A DNA stretch of 29,026 nt from the IMG/VR virus record IMGVR_UViG_2671180727_000014, positions 1 to 29,026 of that record; one strand, 5' to 3'. A program made the translations under genes and the position numbers. The stretch is from a virus (lineage: Duplodnaviria > Heunggongvirae > Uroviricota > Caudoviricetes). Positions 1 to 12,213 of the stretch are shown here, piece by piece; position 1 is the stretch's first letter; every line of letters starts with the position of its first letter. The notes under the pieces are model-generated. The model had not been told where the DNA came from, did not search any database, and saw nothing but the letters and a program-made list of their open reading frames with translations.

Positions 1-3590
<3,590 letters not shown>

Positions 3591-3616
<26 letters not shown>

Positions 3617-3794
3617 GTGTTTTTACCTTTCTGGTTTTTTTGATTTTGTCATTGGGGAAGCCTACGAACTTCCCATGCATCGAAATCGCAACTTCTTTTG
3701 CTGATTGGTGACAATCGGGCTTGTCTGGACACACCAGACAAGCCTTACCAGTTTCAGAAGCAGCGATAAGAGAGCCGAAACATCCTTTACGCAC
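3591..3794 (-). CDS. small Cys-containing hypothetical protein (67 aa), overlaps dnaE start
   Basis: ORF fills the gap between the AAA+ gene and dnaE; contains a C-x2-C-x5-C-H cluster (GKACLVCPDKPDCH). No recognisable domain. Confidence 0.3.
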
Positions 3795-3796
3795 GA

Positions 3797-5032
3797 TTAA
3801 CCAAATATTTTTTGAACAACTTCACGAGCCGCTTGTGCAGAAGCTGAAGGGAGTTTGTTAATGAAAGAACGCTCAATACCTGTCACAAAGTCGCCTCGCA
3901 TCATTCCAATCTTGGCCGACAACAAAAGTTCACGAGGGCCAATTGGCTGACTGATAAGGTGTTCTTCGTATCCATCGCGAACGATACCGGCAAACTTAAC
4001 CATCTTTTCTGCGTATTCATCCACGATACCGGCATTTATCAACATGTTGATCTCTGCCTCTTTGCTCATGTATTTCACATTCGAAACGATGCCAAAACGT
4101 GAAAAGTTCGCGGCGTTCTGGATGTTTGTACCCTGGTACAAGCCGGTTTCATCACCAGAACCGTTTGTGTTGCCAGTGCCAATGAAAGCAAACCGTTCAT
4201 GCGGAGTAATGCGACGCCATTCTGGAGTTGCCTCTTTGATGACCAACGCCTCACCTTCCAGCACTGGCTGATACACGCCAAGAATTTGTGGAAACGCAAA
4301 GTCGTATTCATCCGCGAGGTAAACCCAGCCATGCTTCATTGCGAGCGCAAGCAAGCCAGGCTCGAAATACGTAGAGCCATCACGCGCCAGAATTTGCCCC
4401 GTAACATGTGCCTCTTCCATTGATGCTGTATGTTGGGCACGGATCAACGGACGATTGAGCAAAGCACATAGCTGTGTAGGCAATGACGATTTGCCTGTTC
4501 CTGCATGACCCCACAAATAGCCAGGTATGCCAAGTTCAAGCATCATGAAAATATCTTTGATCAGTTCGAAGTCGCCATATACGTAGCCCTTCTTCACTTC
4601 TGGAACGAACTCTGGATACGGCGTATTGACGTTGACGCTAACCATGAGCGGCGTCCCACGTTTTGTTCCGAGTTCTTCCACCGTTACGTTTAGCAGTTCG
4701 TGAGCTGCGACCAGATCTGTCTTGTACTCAACTGTGCCTGTGTAGCCTGGGCTACTGGTCAAGCCAGAAGATTTCGCCATTTCGCTTTTTTGCTCGGCAC
4801 GTTTAGCTTGAATTGCATCAAGTGCCTTTTTCGATAGCGTTGGTTCATCTGGAAACTGCGTTGTGTACATTTTCAGTACGGTGTCAGGATCGGCATCTTT
4901 TACTGACTCAGGAATGCCCTCGCAATTACCATTGGCTACATGGGACTTAAAATAGTGAAATGATTTGCCGCACCACTTGCAAACAAGGTAATCAGAAGGA
5001 TTTTTATCATTTTGCAGTGCAGTAGTAGTCAT
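3797..5032 (-). CDS. AAA+ ATPase of the MoxR/CobS-like class, 411 aa
   Basis: Walker A GHAGTGKSS and Walker B-like VYLADEYD; N-terminal Cys cluster (CKWCGKSFHYF...GNC); sits immediately downstream of a vWA protein on the same strand. Confidence 0.8.
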   Translation of the reverse strand: MTTTALQNDKNPSDYLVCKWCGKSFHYFKSHVANGNCEGIPESVKDADPDTVLKMYTTQFPDEPTLSKKALDAIQAKRAEQKSEMAKSSGLTSSPGYTGTVEYKTDLVAAHELLNVTVEELGTKRGTPLMVSVNVNTPYPEFVPEVKKGYVYGDFELIKDIFMMLELGIPGYLWGHAGTGKSSLPTQLCALLNRPLIRAQHTASMEEAHVTGQILARDGSTYFEPGLLALAMKHGWVYLADEYDFAFPQILGVYQPVLEGEALVIKEATPEWRRITPHERFAFIGTGNTNGSGDETGLYQGTNIQNAANFSRFGIVSNVKYMSKEAEINMLINAGIVDEYAEKMVKFAGIVRDGYEEHLISQPIGPRELLLSAKIGMMRGDFVTGIERSFINKLPSASAQAAREVVQKIFG

Positions 5033-5093
5033 GCGCTTTTCCTTTGTTCTCTAATGAGCGTTCAAGTTCTTATATAAATATACCATTAACTAT

Positions 5094-5111
5094 GGTAAGT
5101 AGTTACTTATC
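5094..5111. promoter_or_regulatory. palindrome-family site GGTAAGTAGTTACTTATC upstream of the AAA+ ATPase gene
   Basis: TAAGTA-GT-TACTTA inverted repeat, about 60 nt upstream of the ATG at 5032. Confidence 0.35.
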
Positions 5112-5127
5112 ATTAAGGCTGTTTTAA

Positions 5128-7236
5128 TTACTTCAAAATGATACGAGATAGTTCAGTAACTACAGATGAACCAAGACTATCAACACTAGTTACCAGGGCA
5201 TGATTTGCGTAAAATCTCTCCGGTGCATCAGTCATGATGCCAATTGCCATCAAATCAATGTCAGTCTGCGTTTCAATTTGCTTCGTAACCGAACGCAAAT
5301 GGGCGTCAAAACCTCTCCCAACAGCCCACGGCGCGCCATCGCTCAGAACAAGCATGATCTTCCTGTCCTCCAAGCGACCGGAAAATAACGATGCAAGGCT
5401 GGCTATGCTTTCACCATCCACGTTATTAAGAAGTGGGAATGTGTAGCCTACGCACCCCATACGTGAGCGAACTTCGCGAGAATTTGCTTTTTCATTCCAA
5501 TTTTTGATGATAGGTAGCATTAAAGATTCAAAGCGAGAGAACTCATATTTGATAGCCTTAAGTTCTCCTGCTGCCATATGACTGCCAAATGTAGTGAAGC
5601 CGGTGATAATGTTGGGAACATTTATTCGATCAAGTGCATCGGCGATGGTATATGCACTTGCAAGAGCTAGTTTTATCGTTTCGCCACTCATTGAACCCGA
5701 TAAATCAATCACTTGTTGAACACAGGCGTTAACGGCTTTAGATTCTTCTTTTTTACGAAACACGCGATCATCATTCATTGTTAATCTGTAGATACTTGAA
5801 CCATGAATGCGCCCCCGACGCTGGCCAGGTATAAACTGAACTCTGTTTCTGCTTGCTATTGCACGTTCCAGGTCTTTTGCCAGCGTCGACGAAACACCTG
5901 ACGAAAGGTGCTTTTCAATATATTTGTCGAAGAGTTGGTTGCCTTCAGGAACGATGCGATAACGGCTGATTGGATATCCACCTAAATCAATATCGGAGAA
6001 TGTTTTAATAAGCCGTTTGATATGGGCTTCTGCCTGATCAATCGAGCCGATGAAGTCGTATGAGCGATTGTATGGCCTGTATTCGCTTTTCGAGCTTTCT
6101 GTTAACTCGCTTTTAATCGTTTCGGATAGCGCATCTTCTGTCATGCCTCCGACTTCATCTTCCATGCTATCCAACTCCTCTAAAGCCTCTTCCAGACTCA
6201 TTTTTGACGGAGTTGGAATGTCTGAAGAGCCGTCTTCTGTCGTTTTTCTTTTTTCGTGGTCAGCGGTTAATGATTCTGACGCCGCGTTATCAGAAGCATC
6301 AGAATCTGATACCGCTTTATCATTTTCTGTATCATCGAATATTGTTTCTGATGATTCAGGATTATCTGAATCATCACTGTCGTTATTATCATGTTTGTGC
6401 TTACTATGTGACTCTGATTTAATAGATTTGTGATTATCTAACGATGAGGGTGTCTCATGATCTTCGTTGTCTTCATTGTTTTCTCCAGAGGCATCCGTCT
6501 GGTCAGCGTCTGAAGGATCGGAAGTTTTTCCCGGAGCTGACTCCTTACCTTTGCTTTCACTTTCAGTGTCTTTGAGGATCTTAGCTATGGTCGCAGCCAC
6601 CTTTACACAATCCTCGGTGCAAGACATGTTACGCACGGCCACATCGATACCATGTTCTTTTAATAATGAAATTGGTTTCTCAATGACAGGCCAATATTCA
6701 TCCATGAAATCTACGAACGGTGCTTGGCCATCCCAGGCTCTTACAACCGGACAGAGAAAGAAGTTTAGAAAAAGCGCGCGCTGATCTTTGCCACAATAAG
6801 CAATAGCCTCTGAAGCCTTTGGTTTAAAGACTTTTTCGATTATAAGGCGCTGAGTTGCCATCAGATTACGTCTTGTTCCGTTAAAGACCTGACCCATTTT
6901 TCGCTCGATGAACACGTCTTCTAAGGCATTCCATAGCGACCAGGAAGGAACGCGTCCTTTTTCTCTCATTTTGTTGGACACACGAATATCGGTAAACAAA
7001 ATGTGAGCAACCTCATGATCGAGAAATCCGCGCACAGCATTCATCAATGCCGGTGTTGCGTTATCCGGGATTGATGGGATGTTTACGAGAATTGGCTCTC
7101 CATCATCGTTATAGCGTACATAAGCGTCGTCCCCTCGTTCTGCAACAGGGATGTTTTTACCTGAAAGGAGAGCGACTACTCGTTTTACACTGTCACGGAA
7201 GTCCTGAACCTCTTTGATGGAACGTTTTTTAGACAT
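5128..7236 (-). CDS. von Willebrand factor A (vWA) domain protein, CobT-like partner of the AAA+ ATPase, 702 aa
   Basis: C-terminal vWA/MIDAS motif VIDLSGSMSG (DxSxS); central ~130 aa acidic Ser/Asp/Glu-rich low-complexity linker (DSDDSDNPESSETIFDDTEND...). Confidence 0.8.
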   Translation of the reverse strand: MSKKRSIKEVQDFRDSVKRVVALLSGKNIPVAERGDDAYVRYNDDGEPILVNIPSIPDNATPALMNAVRGFLDHEVAHILFTDIRVSNKMREKGRVPSWSLWNALEDVFIERKMGQVFNGTRRNLMATQRLIIEKVFKPKASEAIAYCGKDQRALFLNFFLCPVVRAWDGQAPFVDFMDEYWPVIEKPISLLKEHGIDVAVRNMSCTEDCVKVAATIAKILKDTESESKGKESAPGKTSDPSDADQTDASGENNEDNEDHETPSSLDNHKSIKSESHSKHKHDNNDSDDSDNPESSETIFDDTENDKAVSDSDASDNAASESLTADHEKRKTTEDGSSDIPTPSKMSLEEALEELDSMEDEVGGMTEDALSETIKSELTESSKSEYRPYNRSYDFIGSIDQAEAHIKRLIKTFSDIDLGGYPISRYRIVPEGNQLFDKYIEKHLSSGVSSTLAKDLERAIASRNRVQFIPGQRRGRIHGSSIYRLTMNDDRVFRKKEESKAVNACVQQVIDLSGSMSGETIKLALASAYTIADALDRINVPNIITGFTTFGSHMAAGELKAIKYEFSRFESLMLPIIKNWNEKANSREVRSRMGCVGYTFPLLNNVDGESIASLASLFSGRLEDRKIMLVLSDGAPWAVGRGFDAHLRSVTKQIETQTDIDLMAIGIMTDAPERFYANHALVTSVDSLGSSVVTELSRIILK

Positions 7237-7334
7237 GGCTAATCCTTTGTTATGAAAACAAATTATTTACTAGTGTGTTTAATGTAGCACTGCGCGAACA
7301 GGGAACTAAGTCATTCGCGCAGGGAGAAGAGGGG

Positions 7335-7547
7335 TTAACAGATTCTGACGGCTAAAGACCCGGAGCCGGTATTGAGAAGCGTGAAGCGTTTGTTGTTAAG
7401 TTCGAATATAAAGCCAGTTGTGTCATTCACACCAACCTGAATCTGCTCATTCGGTAGATCGGTGAGGATGTCAGCTACACACTCATCAGCTAATTTCTGT
7501 ACGTGTCCGATCTCAAGAGCGATTAGGCTGGAAATAGTGGTGTTCAT
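7335..7547 (-). CDS. hypothetical protein (70 aa)
   Basis: ORF only; position between the vWA gene and the divergent regulatory region. Confidence 0.3.
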   Translation of the reverse strand: MNTTISSLIALEIGHVQKLADECVADILTDLPNEQIQVGVNDTTGFIFELNNKRFTLLNTGSGSLAVRIC

Positions 7548-7724
7548 TCAATCAATCCATTCTAACTTATACTATGGTAAGGAATACTACTAAAATTTGT
7601 ATCAATACTGAATACATTCATATCATATGCAAGTTGATTTTCTTACCTATTTTGGGCTAATTTTTCTCCGTGCAATGGCCTTTAACCGGTCTTTTAAGTG
7701 CCTATCGAAAAAAATGATAATAGC

Positions 7725-7767
7725 TTTACAACCCTAACCTTTGATGTAATATCGGTAAGCACTTACC
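7725..7767 (+). promoter_or_regulatory. sigma70-like promoter (TTTACA-16nt-TAATAT) with a perfect palindromic operator GGTAAGCACTTACC just downstream of the -10
   Basis: TTTACA at 7725-7730, TAATAT at 7747-7752, palindrome GGTAAG-CA-CTTACC at 7754-7767, about 30 nt before the ATG of the HTH gene at 7799. Confidence 0.5.
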
Positions 7768-7798
7768 AGAGAGAATTGAACGCGCAAAGGTTGTAACC

Positions 7799-8185
7799 AT
7801 GTCTGATAACAAGATTGAATTTATAGAAAGTCGCTACGCTGCTTTTATCGCAGGGTTGATTGAATCCTCACCTATGAGTCAGGCCCAAATAGCCAGACTT
7901 ATTGGTTACAAAAATGCCAACAACCTTTCTTTAATTAAAAGTGGCAAAATTCCTTTGCCTATCGATAAGGTTCGTCCGTTGGCGCTGGCGCTGGGTATTG
8001 AGCCAAGTCGTCTTATGATGATGGTGCTGGAAGAACGCCAACCTGAACTCGCAGCATTTTTATACAAAGAAGGCACCGCTCCTCTTAACGAGGACGAAAA
8101 ACAGGTTCTTGCTGCATATAACGAGCGATTCGGTAAAGAGAAAGGCGCATCACAAAAGGTTGTTGAGGCCATAAAGTCTCTATGA
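7799..8185 (+). CDS. helix-turn-helix (XRE/Cro-CI-like) transcriptional regulator, 128 aa
   Basis: HTH-like segment SQAQIARLIGYKNANNLSLIKSGKIP; divergent from and convergent-overlapping with the recombinase gene; palindromic operator in its own promoter. Confidence 0.6.
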   Translation: MSDNKIEFIESRYAAFIAGLIESSPMSQAQIARLIGYKNANNLSLIKSGKIPLPIDKVRPLALALGIEPSRLMMMVLEERQPELAAFLYKEGTAPLNEDEKQVLAAYNERFGKEKGASQKVVEAIKSL

Positions 8186-9283
8186 AAAATTTACACGAAT
8201 AAGCTCTGTTGATAGACGATCTCCCTTAAATTTGTGGTCAATTTCGTCTAAATCCGGTTGCTCTACGATTGATGCGATGTACGTCGAGAAACTTTCTAAG
8301 GCGTCTCGCATCTCGTCCATATAATCGTGCCGGTCGTAGACCCGATCTATCCCCTCAAGACTGTGGTTCATGATTTTACGTGATACCTCCTGGCTTATGC
8401 CTAATGCTGGGAAGTAACTACGCGCAGTACGGCGCAAATCTCGGGGTGTAAATGGCTCAAGCTCCATCAGTTCTGGTCGTTCCAGAATACGACGTAATGC
8501 CTGGGCTATTGCCACTTTAGACATAGGAAGGTCTTTCCCGATTTTTTTATTCGAAGGCACGAGCCACTGGCTGTCTTTACCATATTCGAACAACTCTTCA
8601 ATACAAGTGCGCATTAATGAGCTTAAAGGCAGAGAATGCTCACGGGCAGATTTGTTCCTCTTGCCTTGATTCCAAACCCCACGCTTAAGATTGAACTCAC
8701 TTTTTTTAGCCCGCAGTACTTCGTCAGGTCGTCTTGCGGATACAAGACATAGCCTGGCCGCCCATTTTGTACCAGCACACACATTGAAGTAGTCCCATAT
8801 ATTCCAGAACACCCATACCTCTGCGTCGGTCAGCTTCCGCTCGCGAGGTGTGGGCTTTGCGCCACCGGCAACTTTGTTAAGTGACATATCGTTTAACGGT
8901 GACACGTCTATCATCCCCTGGAAGGCGCACCAGCTAAGGAACTGCTTCATCAGAGAGAAAACGCGGCGGCCCATAACAATTTTGCCATCCAGTATTAGTG
9001 GGTTGACCAGTTGGTTCACCATGAACCTATTAATGTCACTTACTTTTACATCGGCAATGTGCGGCAAAACATGTATCAAAATACAATGAACAGCGATCTC
9101 TGGCCGACGTCTGGTTATCAGCAGAGATAAGCGAGTGAATAACATGAATGCGTCCGAGAATCTCATGTCATTGCTGACCTGGGAGATCATAACGGCCTGC
9201 ATTTGAGATGCTCTTTCGAGATACTCTATCGCCTCTTTTGAGGTGTTCTCCGCAGCGCGTGCTCTGTCAAAGCTATTTTTCAT
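8180..9283 (-). CDS. tyrosine site-specific recombinase (integrase/resolvase family), 367 aa
   Basis: C-terminal catalytic-region pattern: ...ARRPDEVLRA..., FTPRDLRRTARSY (HxLRxT-like box), IMNHS, and the putative catalytic Tyr in RVYDRH. Confidence 0.75.
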   Translation of the reverse strand: MKNSFDRARAAENTSKEAIEYLERASQMQAVMISQVSNDMRFSDAFMLFTRLSLLITRRRPEIAVHCILIHVLPHIADVKVSDINRFMVNQLVNPLILDGKIVMGRRVFSLMKQFLSWCAFQGMIDVSPLNDMSLNKVAGGAKPTPRERKLTDAEVWVFWNIWDYFNVCAGTKWAARLCLVSARRPDEVLRAKKSEFNLKRGVWNQGKRNKSAREHSLPLSSLMRTCIEELFEYGKDSQWLVPSNKKIGKDLPMSKVAIAQALRRILERPELMELEPFTPRDLRRTARSYFPALGISQEVSRKIMNHSLEGIDRVYDRHDYMDEMRDALESFSTYIASIVEQPDLDEIDHKFKGDRLSTELIRVNFS

Positions 9284-9381
9284 ATGACAATCACCGAGTT
9301 ACGCCGATGCACTGTATAAGTAAACAGTATATTAGGCATAGATTCTTATAGGATCAAGAGTAAAAGTAACTCATTTTCAGC

Positions 9382-9414
9382 AATGATTCCATACATAGTA
9401 GGTATGGAATCATT
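9382..9414. repeat. lox/dif-like site: perfect 13-bp inverted repeats flanking a 7-bp asymmetric spacer (AATGATTCCATAC-ATAGTAG-GTATGGAATCATT)
   Basis: Read directly from the sequence; lies about 100 bp upstream of the tyrosine recombinase start codon (9283). Confidence 0.55.
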
Positions 9415-9493
9415 TAGACGTTGTTTTTTGAATTTTAAGGGAAACAGGAGTGAGTTTGGTGGGAATAAAAACGGCTCTTGTGAGCCGTTTAAA

Positions 9494-9739
9494 TCAGAGG
9501 GTGCTGACGTATGCAGCCAGTTCTGTGTATCCGCCAATCGGTTGGCCATTGATCAGTACCTGGGGGATAGTCTCTACCGGTTTACCAACAATTTCACTAA
9601 GTTTTTCCTTGTCGATACCGGCAGTGGTGATGTCGATGTACTCATAATCACCGTAGCCATGTCCCTTTAGTTGCTTCGCCAGCTCGACCGCACGTTTGCA
9701 GTATGAACAGTTATCTCGTCCGTAGATAACGACTTTCAT
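9494..9739 (-). CDS. glutaredoxin-like redoxin (NrdH/Grx-type), about 81 aa
   Basis: Thioredoxin-fold signature with CxxC active site: KVVIYGRDNCSYCKRAVEL. ORF track starts at a GTG at 9742; the adjacent ATG at 9739 is the likelier start. Confidence 0.85.
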   Translation of the reverse strand: MKVVIYGRDNCSYCKRAVELAKQLKGHGYGDYEYIDITTAGIDKEKLSEIVGKPVETIPQVLINGQPIGGYTELAAYVSTL

Positions 9740-11655: not shown

Positions 11656-11742
11656 TGGCGGAGAGTAATGGAATCGAACCATCATCGCTTGCGCAATGGG
11701 ACGGTTTTCAAGACCGCTTGAGCACCATGCTCCCTACTCTCC
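11656..11742 (-). tRNA. tRNA-Ser (anticodon UGA), long variable arm, CCA encoded
   Basis: Reverse complement GGAGAGT...GCGGT-CTTGAAA-ACCGT...GATGG-TTCGATT-CCATT-ACTCTCC-G-CCA: 7-bp acceptor stem, anticodon loop CU-UGA-AA, T-loop TTCGATT. The D-arm is not fully resolved by hand. Confidence 0.7.
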
Positions 11743-11966
11743 GGCCGTTGTGGTGGCCGGTACTGAATCTCCGGCATACGGTGCAGCCAATTAGGACTAC
11801 GGACGATCACCGCTCGCGAAAGGGAAGATTTGCGGCCGCATTTCCCTAACATCCAAGAAAGCTATCGCATCAGTCTGCGAATCCACCACAACGGTAAGAT
11901 CACTACCTTTCGACCAGTCATTGTGCACATGAACGACGATTAACCGTAATGATCTTATCGTTGTAT

Positions 11967-12042
11967 TGGTGCCGGTTAGCGGACTCGAACCGCTGACATC
12001 CTGCTTACAAGGCAGGCGCTCTACCAACTGAGCTAAACCGGC
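11967..12042 (-). tRNA. tRNA-Thr (anticodon UGU), CCA encoded
   Basis: Reverse complement GCCGGTTTAGCTCAGTTGGTAGAGCGCCTGCCTTGTAAGCAGGATGTCAGCGGTTCGAGTCCGCTAACCGGCACCA: perfect 7-bp acceptor stem, anticodon loop CTTGTAA, T-loop GGTTCGAGTCC. Confidence 0.85.
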
Positions 12043-12046
12043 AATT

Positions 12047-12133
12047 TGGTGGGGAGTGATGGAGTCGAACCACCCGAGTCGCAATGACAGTAGATTTACA
12101 GTCTACCCCGCTGCCCCTACGGACTAACTCCCC
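12047..12133 (-). tRNA. tRNA-Tyr (anticodon GUA), long variable arm, CCA encoded
   Basis: Reverse complement GGGGAGT...GTAGA-CTGTAAA-TCTAC...GGTGG-TTCGACT-CCATC-ACTCCCC-A-CCA. Confidence 0.8.
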
Positions 12134-12138
12134 TAAAT

Positions 12139-12213
12139 TGGCGATGGTGGGTGGATTCGAACCACCGACCAGTTGGTTAACAGCCAACTGCTCTACCGCT
12201 GAGCTACACCATC
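12139..12213 (-). tRNA. tRNA-Asn (anticodon GUU), CCA encoded
   Basis: Reverse complement GATGGTGTAGCTCAGCGGTAGAGCAGTTGGCTGTTAACCAACTGGTCGGTGGTTCGAATCCACCCACCATCGCCA: 7-bp acceptor stem, anticodon loop CTGTTAA. Confidence 0.85.

Follow-up and report, generated by a model that had tools for sequence, protein, structure and literature searches.

The CobS/CobT-like gene pair of an SSU5-type phage-plasmid probably acts on a protein and makes no B12

What does a gene pair resembling two cobaltochelatase subunits do in a phage-plasmid whose host is unable to use cobalt chelatase? The question reaches beyond one element, as few auxiliary metabolic genes (AMGs) are reported from viromes as often as cobS and cobT, which form the basis of arguments for a viral boost to B12; in marine T4-like cyanophages, cobS is a core gene routinely tallied as a vitamin-B12 AMG. 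To our knowledge, no viral CobS/CobT member has been characterised biochemically. We addressed the question in a window of 29,026 nucleotides (the whole stretch of DNA analysed), which belongs to an SSU5/Cyrano-type E. coli phage-plasmid and reaches 99.9% identity with plasmids on deposit. Within it, positions 3797-7236 span exactly two minus-strand ORFs, 95 nt apart:

5128..7236, minus strand: cobT-like gene, 702 aa, encoding an N-terminal zincin-like domain, an acidic disordered linker, a shaft-like segment and a vWA domain with MIDAS
3797..5032, minus strand: cobS-like gene, 411 aa, encoding a MoxR-class AAA+ ATPase

A sequence-only reading had described this locus as an AAA+ ATPase and vWA pair similar to CobS/CobT and MoxR-vWA systems, and both the pair and its likenesses are borne out by the ORFs and by Pfam, PHROG and PDB matches. 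The domain search that it proposed returned CobT_C/vWA (PF11775, E = 5.7e-83) and the CobT N-domain (PF06213, 3e-27) for the larger protein and AAA_5 (2.1e-15) for the smaller. Nor is the pair new: SSU5-type phage-plasmids are well known to carry it, annotated as "CobS/CobT"; it is a member of a described viral family (PHROG 249 and 1576) and is not peculiar to this element. That the function of such pairs in phages is not established, as the same reading held, agrees with the literature (PMC11288001, PMC8651126).

The CobT-like protein also matched phrog_1576 (6e-301) and, by PDB comparison, the solved CobT structure (E = 2.4e-13). Its AlphaFold2 (AF2) model has a pLDDT of 80.9, and its BFVD fold matches were viral CobT/vWA proteins. 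The parts of the protein lie as follows:

6541..7227, minus strand: N-terminal domain, residues 4-232; a single helix followed by a sheet of three strands and a bundle of helices, predicted to form an M48-like gluzincin fold
7003..7017, minus strand: HExxH motif H74-E75-V-A-H78 (DHEVAH), invariant in alignments A2 and A3
6082..6564, minus strand: acidic Ser/Asp/Glu-rich low-complexity linker, residues ~225-385, with a disordered core at residues 233-339 (6220..6540)
5728..5877, minus strand: conserved segment before the vWA core, residues ~454-503; in genuine CobT it aligns to the "shaft" (CobT residues ~373-413)
5131..5727, minus strand: vWA domain with a complete MIDAS (D511, S513, S515, N605/D607, D633), in invariant columns of A2

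The N-terminal zincin-like domain, with its intact HExxH, had been overlooked in the sequence-only reading. Its predicted fold resembles M48/M56/minigluzincin peptidases, while at the sequence level the domain gave no Pfam peptidase match. The motif is kept in 143 of the 150 best representatives, which are distant relatives, and in 50/52 representatives of viral clusters; together with N103, E106, D107, and E111, it is invariant across relatives sharing only 28-49% identity. E106, D107, and E111, which the alignments and the AF2 model place on the helix after the HExxH helix, are candidate third ligands. All six cultured phage lineages carry the motif as well—SSU5-type, T4-like cyanophage S-PM2, ICP2, CRP-810, Gordonia phage Anamika, and jumbo phage RsoM2USA. 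Invariance both among distant relatives and in six independent lineages points to selection on the site. In contrast, six genuine CobTs have RGxxD[SA]xAL[RQ] at this position and are without the Glu and either His, from which it follows that HExxH is unneeded for chelation. Among the six are the CobT of S. meliloti and one from Brucellaceae, the latter aligned with solved CobT 9uka; both come from genera or groups with biochemically or structurally validated enzymes (bioRxiv 10.64898/2026.07.21.739949; PMC6249242). A metal held by HExxH could be structural or transferable, without proteolytic catalysis.

Between the two folded parts lies the polyacidic, serine-rich stretch that had been taken for an insert. 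The stretch itself is real—residues ~225-385 comprise 19% Ser and ~30% Asp+Glu with a net charge of about -30 to -35, and residues 233-339 fall at AlphaFold pLDDT<50—but it is the standard inter-domain linker of the family. Linker net charge is below -10 in 143 of 147 relatives, whose median linker (173 aa, 38% D+E) is longer and more acidic than that of the window, and genuine CobT has a disordered acidic linker of ~90 aa as well. The linker is thus a family-wide feature, shared even with genuine CobT, and nothing special to this protein; its only unusual property is a Ser+Thr content of 27%, the highest of the 147. At the DNA level, the linker region showed no noteworthy tandem repeats.

Downstream of the linker, the segment at residues ~454-503 has a family consensus (LERAxAA..WxPGxRxGR..SLxRL..GDDRVFRxKEE) and, judging from its alignment, is probably equivalent to the CobT shaft, which in the genuine enzyme inserts into the CobS pore (bioRxiv 10.64898/2026.07.21.739949). 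The MIDAS residues of the adjoining vWA domain align to CobT D422/S424/S426/N518/D546, with all five intact. Its best fold matches by Foldseek were the NorD vWA domain in NorQD complexes (E = 2.7e-9) and the MIDAS domain of midasin (MDN1), and the profile search of the whole protein also matched NorD.

The CobS-like protein matched phrog_249 (2.2e-106) and, over residues 142-411, the solved CobS (1.8e-25), with further PDB matches to midasin, CbbQ, and NorQ. Its Walker A (GHAGTGKS, 4487..4510) and Walker B (DE, 4307..4312) motifs are intact and conserved in the homologue alignment A1; this is a MoxR-type AAA+ core homologous to that of solved CobS. Ahead of this core, the protein carries a zinc-finger-like extension that had likewise escaped the sequence-only reading:

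4613..5032, minus strand: N-terminal extension, residues 1-140 (~140 aa), seen in alignment A1 and absent from genuine CobS
4922..4981, minus strand: zinc-finger-like motif C18-x2-C21...H26-x4-H31 within the extension

The extension also bears a Y..FPDxPTxS motif, and the extension motif recurs in 95 of 113 full-length homologues, whereas genuine CobS (328 aa) aligns to the viral protein only from its own residue 39, at query residue 142. In the alignment, the pore-loop residues with which genuine CobS contacts the shaft (S102, I104, and D110) are not conserved, so that a shaft-in-pore mode is an assumption for the viral pair.

Two aspects that the sequence-only reading did not take up are the replication operon that houses the pair and the silence of the pair in lysogens. 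Its neighbours in the window are these:

98..3616, minus strand: DnaE-type DNA polymerase III alpha, downstream of the pair (ORF, with dnaE annotation in relatives)
3591..3794, minus strand: Cys-rich ORF, 67 aa, between cobS-like and dnaE (phrog_6337 3.2e-45, phrog_3616 4.3e-5)
7335..7547, minus strand: 70-aa ORF upstream of the pair, equal to CYRAN_46 (phrog_2627 8.8e-41)
7799..8185, plus strand: divergent HTH regulator, equal to CYRAN_45, annotated as transcriptional regulator or putative repressor

CYRAN_45 is taken as the master repressor of Cyrano. The Cys-rich ORF is a shortened version of a conserved neighbour of 193 aa, and 33 of 52 viral clusters encode a phrog_3616-type protein between cobS and dnaE. 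Across the same clusters, cobS-like is always directly downstream of cobT-like (52/52), DnaE follows a few genes later in 44, and an HTH regulator stands one to three genes upstream of cobT-like in 32; ligase (33/52), primase (24/52), and SSB (15/52) complete the conserved synteny. Within the group of siphoviruses of ~110 kb, such synteny may stem from common descent and not from function. Further afield, S-PM2 has the pair between gp46/47 and gp45/44/62 and ICP2 three ORFs before its primase-helicase genes, while CRP-810, the Gordonia phage, and RsoM2USA have the order S then T, with neighbours not recognisable as replication genes. Expression was read from the Cyrano orthologues, which share 97.9% DNA identity with the pair: in LF82 lysogens they are at background (7.8 and 6.7), as is dnaE (10.1), with the divergent repressor (95.8) ~10x above background. 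The pair is therefore silent in Cyrano lysogens.

An intact protease motif that the real chelatase has lost, together with a site in the replication operon, argues that the pair probably acts on a protein and makes no B12. More specifically, we give roughly even odds (about 0.5) to a two-component, ATP-driven MoxR-vWA machine of the lytic cycle, homologous to the CobS-CobT motor and not a chelatase, that acts on a protein client and cleaves or processes it. By homology with the solved CobST complex, the CobS-like protein would form a hexameric AAA+ ring, the pre-vWA segment of the CobT-like protein would be held in the ring pore as a shaft, and the N-domain would dock on the ATPase; the acidic disordered linker would tether the two CobT-like domains so that a client could be clamped between them, in the position that CobN occupies in the real enzyme (bioRxiv 10.64898/2026.07.21.739949). 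The vWA MIDAS of the viral protein may in turn bind an acidic residue of the client. Such binding is established for the MoxR-vWA class. Given that the N-domain has a complete zincin HExxH site, unlike genuine CobT, our proposal is a protein client on which the machine pulls and which a putative peptidase cleaves or processes. The pair appears to be co-transcribed with early and replication genes which, together with its silence in the lysogen, suggests that the client is, most likely, a protein of the host or the phage with a part in initiating lytic DNA replication or in taking over the host. A remodeller or protease reading was partly anticipated for jumbo phages by Iyer et al. 2021 (PMC7824862).

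A wider claim would be that viral CobS/CobT pairs in general, including those of which the core cobS of marine T4-like cyanophages is part, are an early-infection, ATP-dependent, MIDAS-targeted zinc metalloprotease beside the replication machinery, with none of them chelatase subunits and cellular CobT a pseudo-protease relative; we hold this more tentatively, at somewhat worse than even odds. Three features, namely a motif that viral members keep and the real enzyme has lost, the replication operon, and the silence in lysogens, jointly favour a function in the lytic programme that is directed at a protein. If that is true, much existing AMG annotation is mistaken, and AAA+-driven proteases or remodellers of a new class become open to study in E. 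coli, where work is feasible since phage PhiR41_1 lists K-12 MG1655 as host. On the metalloprotease reading, the pair of the E. coli phage-plasmid, whose host has no CobN, would offer a tractable model for finding the client. If the protein-directed reading is wrong, the pair is an ordinary, already catalogued phage gene pair.

Among other readings, two survive best, though each is unlikely. The first is that the pair folds or assembles structural proteins of the virion, with processing by the peptidase domain. Iyer et al. (PMC7824862) described a MoxR ATPase and a vWA protein with an N-terminal metallopeptidase, the architecture that the window pair shares, and proposed a role in virion assembly for jumbo phages; the MoxR-vWA tail system of ATV is a precedent. 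However, the pairs of the SSU5 group, S-PM2, and ICP2 lie among replication genes, far from head and tail modules, and no structural gene is a conserved neighbour in the 52 viral clusters. Gene position is indirect evidence here, because late-acting proteins can be encoded elsewhere.

The second, to which we give equally little weight, is a metal-insertion chaperone without proteolysis, similar to NorQD, CoxDE, and the chelatases, in which the motor would open a phage or host metalloenzyme and HExxH would hand over the metal. The PHP domain of DnaE and the class Ia NrdB are candidate clients. NorQD itself puts iron into NO reductase, genuine relatives of the pair work in metal insertion, and the NorD similarities in fold and profile noted above are consistent with such a role, as are the downstream DnaE of 44/52 clusters and the NrdAB encoded in the element. 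Yet the S-PM2 and ICP2 pairs adjoin replication genes other than a DnaE-type polymerase, no metalloenzyme partner is conserved across all lineages, and an HExxH with an invariant general-base Glu fits hydrolytic zincins better than metal carriers.

A role in counter-defence, with the acidic linker as a DNA mimic baiting DNA-binding host defence proteins for degradation, or in defence, as a plasmid-borne abortive-infection system, is improbable. PADLOC gave no significant match (only DrmE for the CobT-like protein, E=6.8e-4, 16 bits, and nothing for the CobS-like protein), genuine CobT bears a similar acidic linker without a DNA-related role, and the similarity to ArdC is generic to zincins; silence in the lysogen argues against a constitutive plasmid-borne defence.

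The usual annotation, proposed by Liu et al. 2021 (PMC8651126), is an AMG pair that completes a cobalt chelatase with host CobN and, in the infected cell, raises the synthesis of cobalamin. True homology to CobS and CobT extends over both proteins, including the MIDAS, acidic linker, and shaft-like segment, but the scores against the NCBI cobaltochelatase equivalogs are ~7- to 11-fold under the cut-offs (84.9 against 558.55 bits for CobS-like with TIGR01650, 69.1 against 759.05 bits for CobT-like with TIGR01651). The absence of a cobalamin context, which the sequence-only reading had pointed out, holds on a wider scale: the complete, near-identical 112-kb plasmid (99.7% identical over the pair) is annotated without cobN or other cob genes and encodes NrdAB, a B12-independent class Ia ribonucleotide reductase (RNR). 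Salmonella and Klebsiella use the CbiK route. E. coli makes B12 only once heterologous CobN/S/T have been introduced together with the remaining pathway, a total of roughly 30 genes (PMC6249242), which, with a conserved HExxH that real CobT dispenses with and a pair silent in lysogens, makes the AMG explanation very improbable.

How, then, does the pair compare with known systems? With the CobS-CobT cobaltochelatase motor (Brucella/Sinorhizobium/Pseudomonas type; PDB 9uj*/9uk*, bioRxiv 10.64898/2026.07.21.739949) it has in common a MoxR-class AAA+ ATPase, adjacent genes, and, in CobT, an M48-like N-domain, acidic disordered linker, shaft, and vWA with MIDAS. It differs in its sub-cut-off equivalog scores, an intact HExxH in place of D[SA]xAL[RQ], the extra ~140-aa zinc-finger-like extension of the ATPase, a gene order of T then S instead of S then T, and its place in a phage replication operon, on an element annotated without CobN or a corrin pathway and in a host that has neither of its own. 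NorQ-NorD, CbbQ-CbbO, RavA-ViaA, and midasin share the AAA_5 ATPase, a vWA adaptor with a MIDAS, and the principle of remodelling a client with the help of ATP, and in the window, too, an AAA_5 ATPase gene adjoins a vWA gene with intact MIDAS; as far as matches show, their adaptors have no zincin domain, unlike the CobT-like protein, and their clients are respiratory or carbon-fixation enzymes and pre-ribosomes. Compared with M48/M56 gluzincins (Ste24/ZMPSTE24, HtpX, BepA, BlaR1) and minigluzincins, the window domain, with its putative peptidase activity, is soluble, shares its polypeptide with a vWA domain, and would work with an AAA+ ring. The viral cobST pairs, or MoxR ATPase and metallopeptidase-vWA pairs (PMC8651126; PMC7824862), show no essential difference: architecture, motifs, and adjacency are the same, and the window combines both viral families (phrog_249, phrog_1576) with an HExxH domain fused to vWA. 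Within that family, its lineage stands out for the highest linker Ser+Thr and for the 67-aa short form of the Cys-rich protein after cobS.

The window region is 97–98% identical to the E. coli phages Cyrano, CMS-2020a, and PhiR41_1, and Salmonella phage SSU5 matches it at 75% identity over 60% of its length. A further 465 plasmid records (Escherichia, Enterobacter, Yersinia, Salmonella, and others; best 99.9%) match the region, with the gene pair annotated as "cobalamin biosynthesis protein CobT" and "AAA family ATPase". Given these matches to SSU5-type phages and plasmids and the existing annotations, the element is therefore an SSU5-type phage-plasmid whose pair is already in the databases. 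Downstream of the pair, on the same strand, lie a Cys-rich ORF and then a DnaE-type polymerase; upstream, an ORF of 70 aa is accompanied by a divergent HTH regulator.

Features of the window
3591..3794, minus strand: 67-aa Cys-rich ORF (GCFGS...CLVCPDKPDCH), overlapping the start of dnaE by 26 nt
3797..5032, minus strand: cobS-like gene, ORF of 411 aa
5128..7236, minus strand: cobT-like gene, ORF of 702 aa
7799..8185, plus strand: divergent HTH gene, orthologue of Cyrano CYRAN_45
11656..12213, minus strand: four tRNA genes (Ser-UGA, Thr-UGU, Tyr-GUA, Asn-GUU)

The sequence-only reading had proposed an AAA+ ATPase and vWA protein pair at 3797-7236, and this was borne out by the ORFs and by Pfam, PHROG, and solved-structure matches. 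Pfam recognized the CobT N-domain (3e-27) and CobT_C/vWA (5.7e-83) in the CobT-like protein and AAA_5 (2.1e-15) in the CobS-like protein; the two belong to phrog_1576 (6e-301, labeled "unknown function") and phrog_249 (2.2e-106, labeled "porphyrin biosynthesis"), and they match the solved cobaltochelatase subunits CobT (E = 2.4e-13) and CobS (E = 1.8e-25). Midasin, CbbQ, and NorQ are further matches of the CobS-like protein. Foldseek with the full CobT-like model returned vWA matches only, from a library that runs to April 2026 and predates the CobST structures. Homology to the CobST motor is clear, with the MIDAS of the vWA domain complete and Walker A and Walker B of the ATPase intact. The 95-nt spacer between the two genes folded no better than shuffles (z = 0.68), and a promoter/terminator scan gave nothing above the level of shuffles.

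Positions 6298..9737 of phage Cyrano (L297) correspond to 3797..7236 of the window, and there the pair is named "dimethylbenzimidazole phosphoribosyltransferase" and "cobalamin synthetase". These are the CobT and CobS of Salmonella nomenclature, which are unrelated proteins, the names having been confused. The same confusion of CobT/CobS nomenclature occurs in the text of PMC11288001. Just outside the window past dnaE, in the replication region, a 780-aa ORF (NZ_CP053233.1, 4284..6623) is annotated as "LAGLIDADG family homing endonuclease"; an ORF of this size points to a replication protein with an intein more than to an endonuclease standing alone.

In a July 2026 preprint (bioRxiv 10.64898/2026.07.21.739949), which reports crystal and cryo-EM structures, the N-domain of genuine CobT is described as M48C-peptidase-like and separated from the vWA domain by a disordered linker; a "shaft" ahead of the vWA domain inserts in the CobS hexamer pore, and the two CobT domains hold CobN between them. 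In the window's CobT-like protein, we found an intact zincin motif, H74-E75-x-x-H78, followed by the invariant residues N103, E106, D107, and E111. An exhaustive search recovered 5,063 relatives at E<=0.001, and HE[VIC][AGS]H stood in the same position in 143 of the best 150 of these (30–60% identical), at least three of the seven exceptions being fragments without the N-terminus. Both HExxH and the MIDAS DxSGS were kept in six of six independent cultured phage lineages—SSU5-type, cyanophage S-PM2 (S-PM2p122, annotated "peptidase"), ICP2 (gp41), Roseobacter phage CRP-810, Gordonia phage Anamika, and Ralstonia jumbo phage RsoM2USA—and the N-domain fold is common to many viral vWA proteins of 570–810 aa, including those of haloarchaeal tailed viruses.

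For the N-domain, phmmer against the PDB gave chance matches only (e.g., HLA chains), Pfam at E<=10 yielded no peptidase family, and the alignment of the family profile with genuine CobT began only at position 91. Lacking a direct structural match, and with the profile starting at 91, we therefore sought genuine CobT N-termini in genomes, adjoining cobS, from Brucellaceae, Sinorhizobium, Pandoraea, Sphingomonas, Cereibacter, and Caballeronia; a Methylobacterium sequence (H38) was left out of the comparison. The vWA domain of the Brucellaceae CobT is 99% identical to that of solved CobT (9uka). At the position aligned with HExxH, all six genuine CobTs carry RG[LAFT][GA]D[SA]xAL[RQ], having lost both histidines and the catalytic glutamate while keeping the two downstream glutamates. 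Because the motif is kept in viral members and lost in genuine CobT, the viral CobT-like clade is predicted by sequence to be protease-competent, whereas the cellular chelatase adaptor would, by the same criterion, be a pseudo-protease.

When genuine CobT was sought by its vWA domain, most of the top database matches were entries with a truncated N-terminus. In the Brucellaceae assembly (GCA_012103055.1; L080, 3370..5380), cobT is split by an assembly frameshift, and the called protein (P0271, 459 aa) is without the N-domain. In four alphaproteobacterial genomes (L080, L081, L083, and L084), the same bolA and DnaJ-domain genes precede cobS-cobT, and the fetched flanks held no other cob genes.

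The sequence-only reading had also emphasized a long acidic, Ser/Asp-rich linker. The stretch itself was confirmed: in residues ~225–385 of the CobT-like protein, Ser makes up 19% and Asp+Glu about 30%, the net charge being about -30 to -35, and AlphaFold predicts disorder across residues 233–339. As a peculiarity it did not hold up, since linker net charge is below -10 in 143 of 147 diverse relatives (median 173 aa and 38% D+E, the window's linker having 148 aa and 31%) and genuine CobT likewise has a disordered acidic linker, of ~90 aa; the emphasized feature is thus a family trait. The sole outlying property was Ser+Thr content, which at 27% tops the set, and across the 147 relatives acidity is the conserved property whereas Ser-richness is lineage-specific; on that ground the idea of a phosphorylated Ser-rich linker was set aside. 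The linker DNA held no meaningful tandem repeats. Its codons include TCA for 13 of 31 Ser and ACA for 6 of 12 Thr, against 10 of 43 and 6 of 22 in the rest of the gene, though these are small numbers.

The AAA+ core of the CobS-like protein aligns with genuine CobS from residue 142. Ahead of it lie C18-x2-C21...H26-x4-H31 and a Y..FPDxPTxS motif, and of 113 full-length homologues 95 have the Cys/His motif; for this region, Pfam at E<=10 turned up nothing credible. By tblastn the ATPase was found in 494 cultured phage records, 434 of them cyanophages, which confirms it as a sibling of cobS, a core gene of cyanophages. The ATPases of CRP-810 (L298, 1827..3680, 617 aa) and Anamika (L299, 2209..3768, 519 aa) have N-terminal extensions of ~250 aa ahead of the AAA+ core, so that such an add-on is recurrent in viral pairs, with variable length and sequence.

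To describe the genomic setting, we reduced 283 IMG/VR loci from four scans to 52 clusters with <60% CobT identity between clusters, locating cobS in seven high-GC loci by six-frame HMM search. The cobS-like gene lay directly 3' of the cobT-like gene on the same strand in 52/52 clusters, and adjacency of the two is obligatory. Most source contigs were 100–118 kb.

Neighbors of the pair, by number of clusters
DnaE: 44/52
phrog_1069/2058 protein: 38/52
ATP-dependent DNA ligase: 33/52
Cys-rich phrog_3616 protein, between cobS-like and dnaE (short form in the window, the 67-aa ORF): 33/52
HTH regulator: 32/52
sigma-70-region-2-like protein: 28/52
DnaG-like primase: 24/52
gp32-like SSB: 15/52

The 67-aa ORF aligns with the N-terminus of phrog_3616, a protein of ~193 aa, so the SSU5 lineage retains the Cys-rich head only. 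In S-PM2, the pair is flanked by gp46/47 and gp45/44/62, and in ICP2 a primase and helicase follow three ORFs on; CRP-810, Gordonia phages, and RsoM2USA carry the S gene ahead of the T gene, among uninformative neighbors. Outside the phage group of the 52 clusters, context is thus mixed.

Expression data from E. coli LF82 lysogens (PMC9928086) place CYRAN_47 and CYRAN_48, the Cyrano orthologues of the pair, at background (7.8 and 6.7), with dnaE at a similar level (10.1); CYRAN_45, the divergently encoded putative master repressor, reaches 95.8, or about 10x background. The pair is silent in lysogens and, with CYRAN_45 high, is therefore a repressed lytic-cycle function and not a lysogeny-expressed moron. 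A divergent region of 250 nt (7548..7798) precedes the window's HTH gene; if the HTH protein is the master repressor, the string of small ORF, cobT, cobS, and dnaE would form the operon that induction derepresses first. By far the highest transcription of the Cyrano element is that of CYRAN_43 (L297, 12052..12606), a hypothetical gene near the integrase (723-fold over prophage background in LF82 lysogens); the window diverges from Cyrano around this region.

We give roughly even odds (about 0.5) that the pair is a protein-directed remodeller or protease and not a chelatase; its link to replication is more tentative. The conserved HExxH is under selection, and in three lineages the pair is set in a replication operon. 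A CobS-like hexamer would grip the conserved pre-vWA segment of the CobT-like protein, and the acidic linker would allow the zincin and vWA domains to clamp a client at the place of CobN in the genuine enzyme. This client would be bound by the MIDAS, remodelled by ATP hydrolysis, and cut by the zincin site; we favor a host or phage protein that bears on takeover of the host or on replication early in the lytic cycle.

A chaperone and protease for virion assembly (Iyer et al. 2021, PMC7824862) seems unlikely; that work noted, in jumbo phages, the fusion of a metallopeptidase domain with the vWA protein that partners a MoxR ATPase. Similarly improbable is a NorQD-like chaperone inserting metal without proteolysis. 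A counter-defence or defence device is more doubtful still, PADLOC having returned no significant match. Least credible is a true cobalt chelatase, as both proteins fall far under the NCBI equivalog cut-offs (CobS-like 84.9 bits against 558.55, CobT-like 69.1 against 759.05), no cobN or other cob gene is annotated on a complete plasmid with 99.7% identity across the pair, whose own ribonucleotide reductase is of the B12-independent class Ia, and B12 synthesis in E. coli requires that CobN, CobS, and CobT be supplied, with roughly 30 genes in all (PMC6249242). The suggestion from sequence that cobalamin-pathway context was absent thus stands, and the proposal that viral CobST hijacks the CobN of the host (PMC8651126) is therefore inapplicable to this element.

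The pair, its place in SSU5-type elements, and its wide spread in tailed viruses are known. In the searchable literature, we did not find stated the clean split between viral CobT with HExxH and genuine CobT without it, the extension of the viral ATPase with its zinc-finger-like motif, or the link of the pair to the replication operon and lysogen repression, and literature on CobT with HEXXH gave nothing relevant. These three points sharpen a testable hypothesis, but all are computational. The main interest of the pair is that the E. coli version of this candidate remodeller or protease makes a long-standing question on viral cobS/cobT accessible to experiment. Set beside the genuine cobaltochelatase, the viral pair differs in gene order, which is cobS then cobT at genuine loci and cobT-like then cobS-like in the 52 viral clusters, and in the first ~140 residues of the CobS-like protein, an extension that genuine CobS is without.
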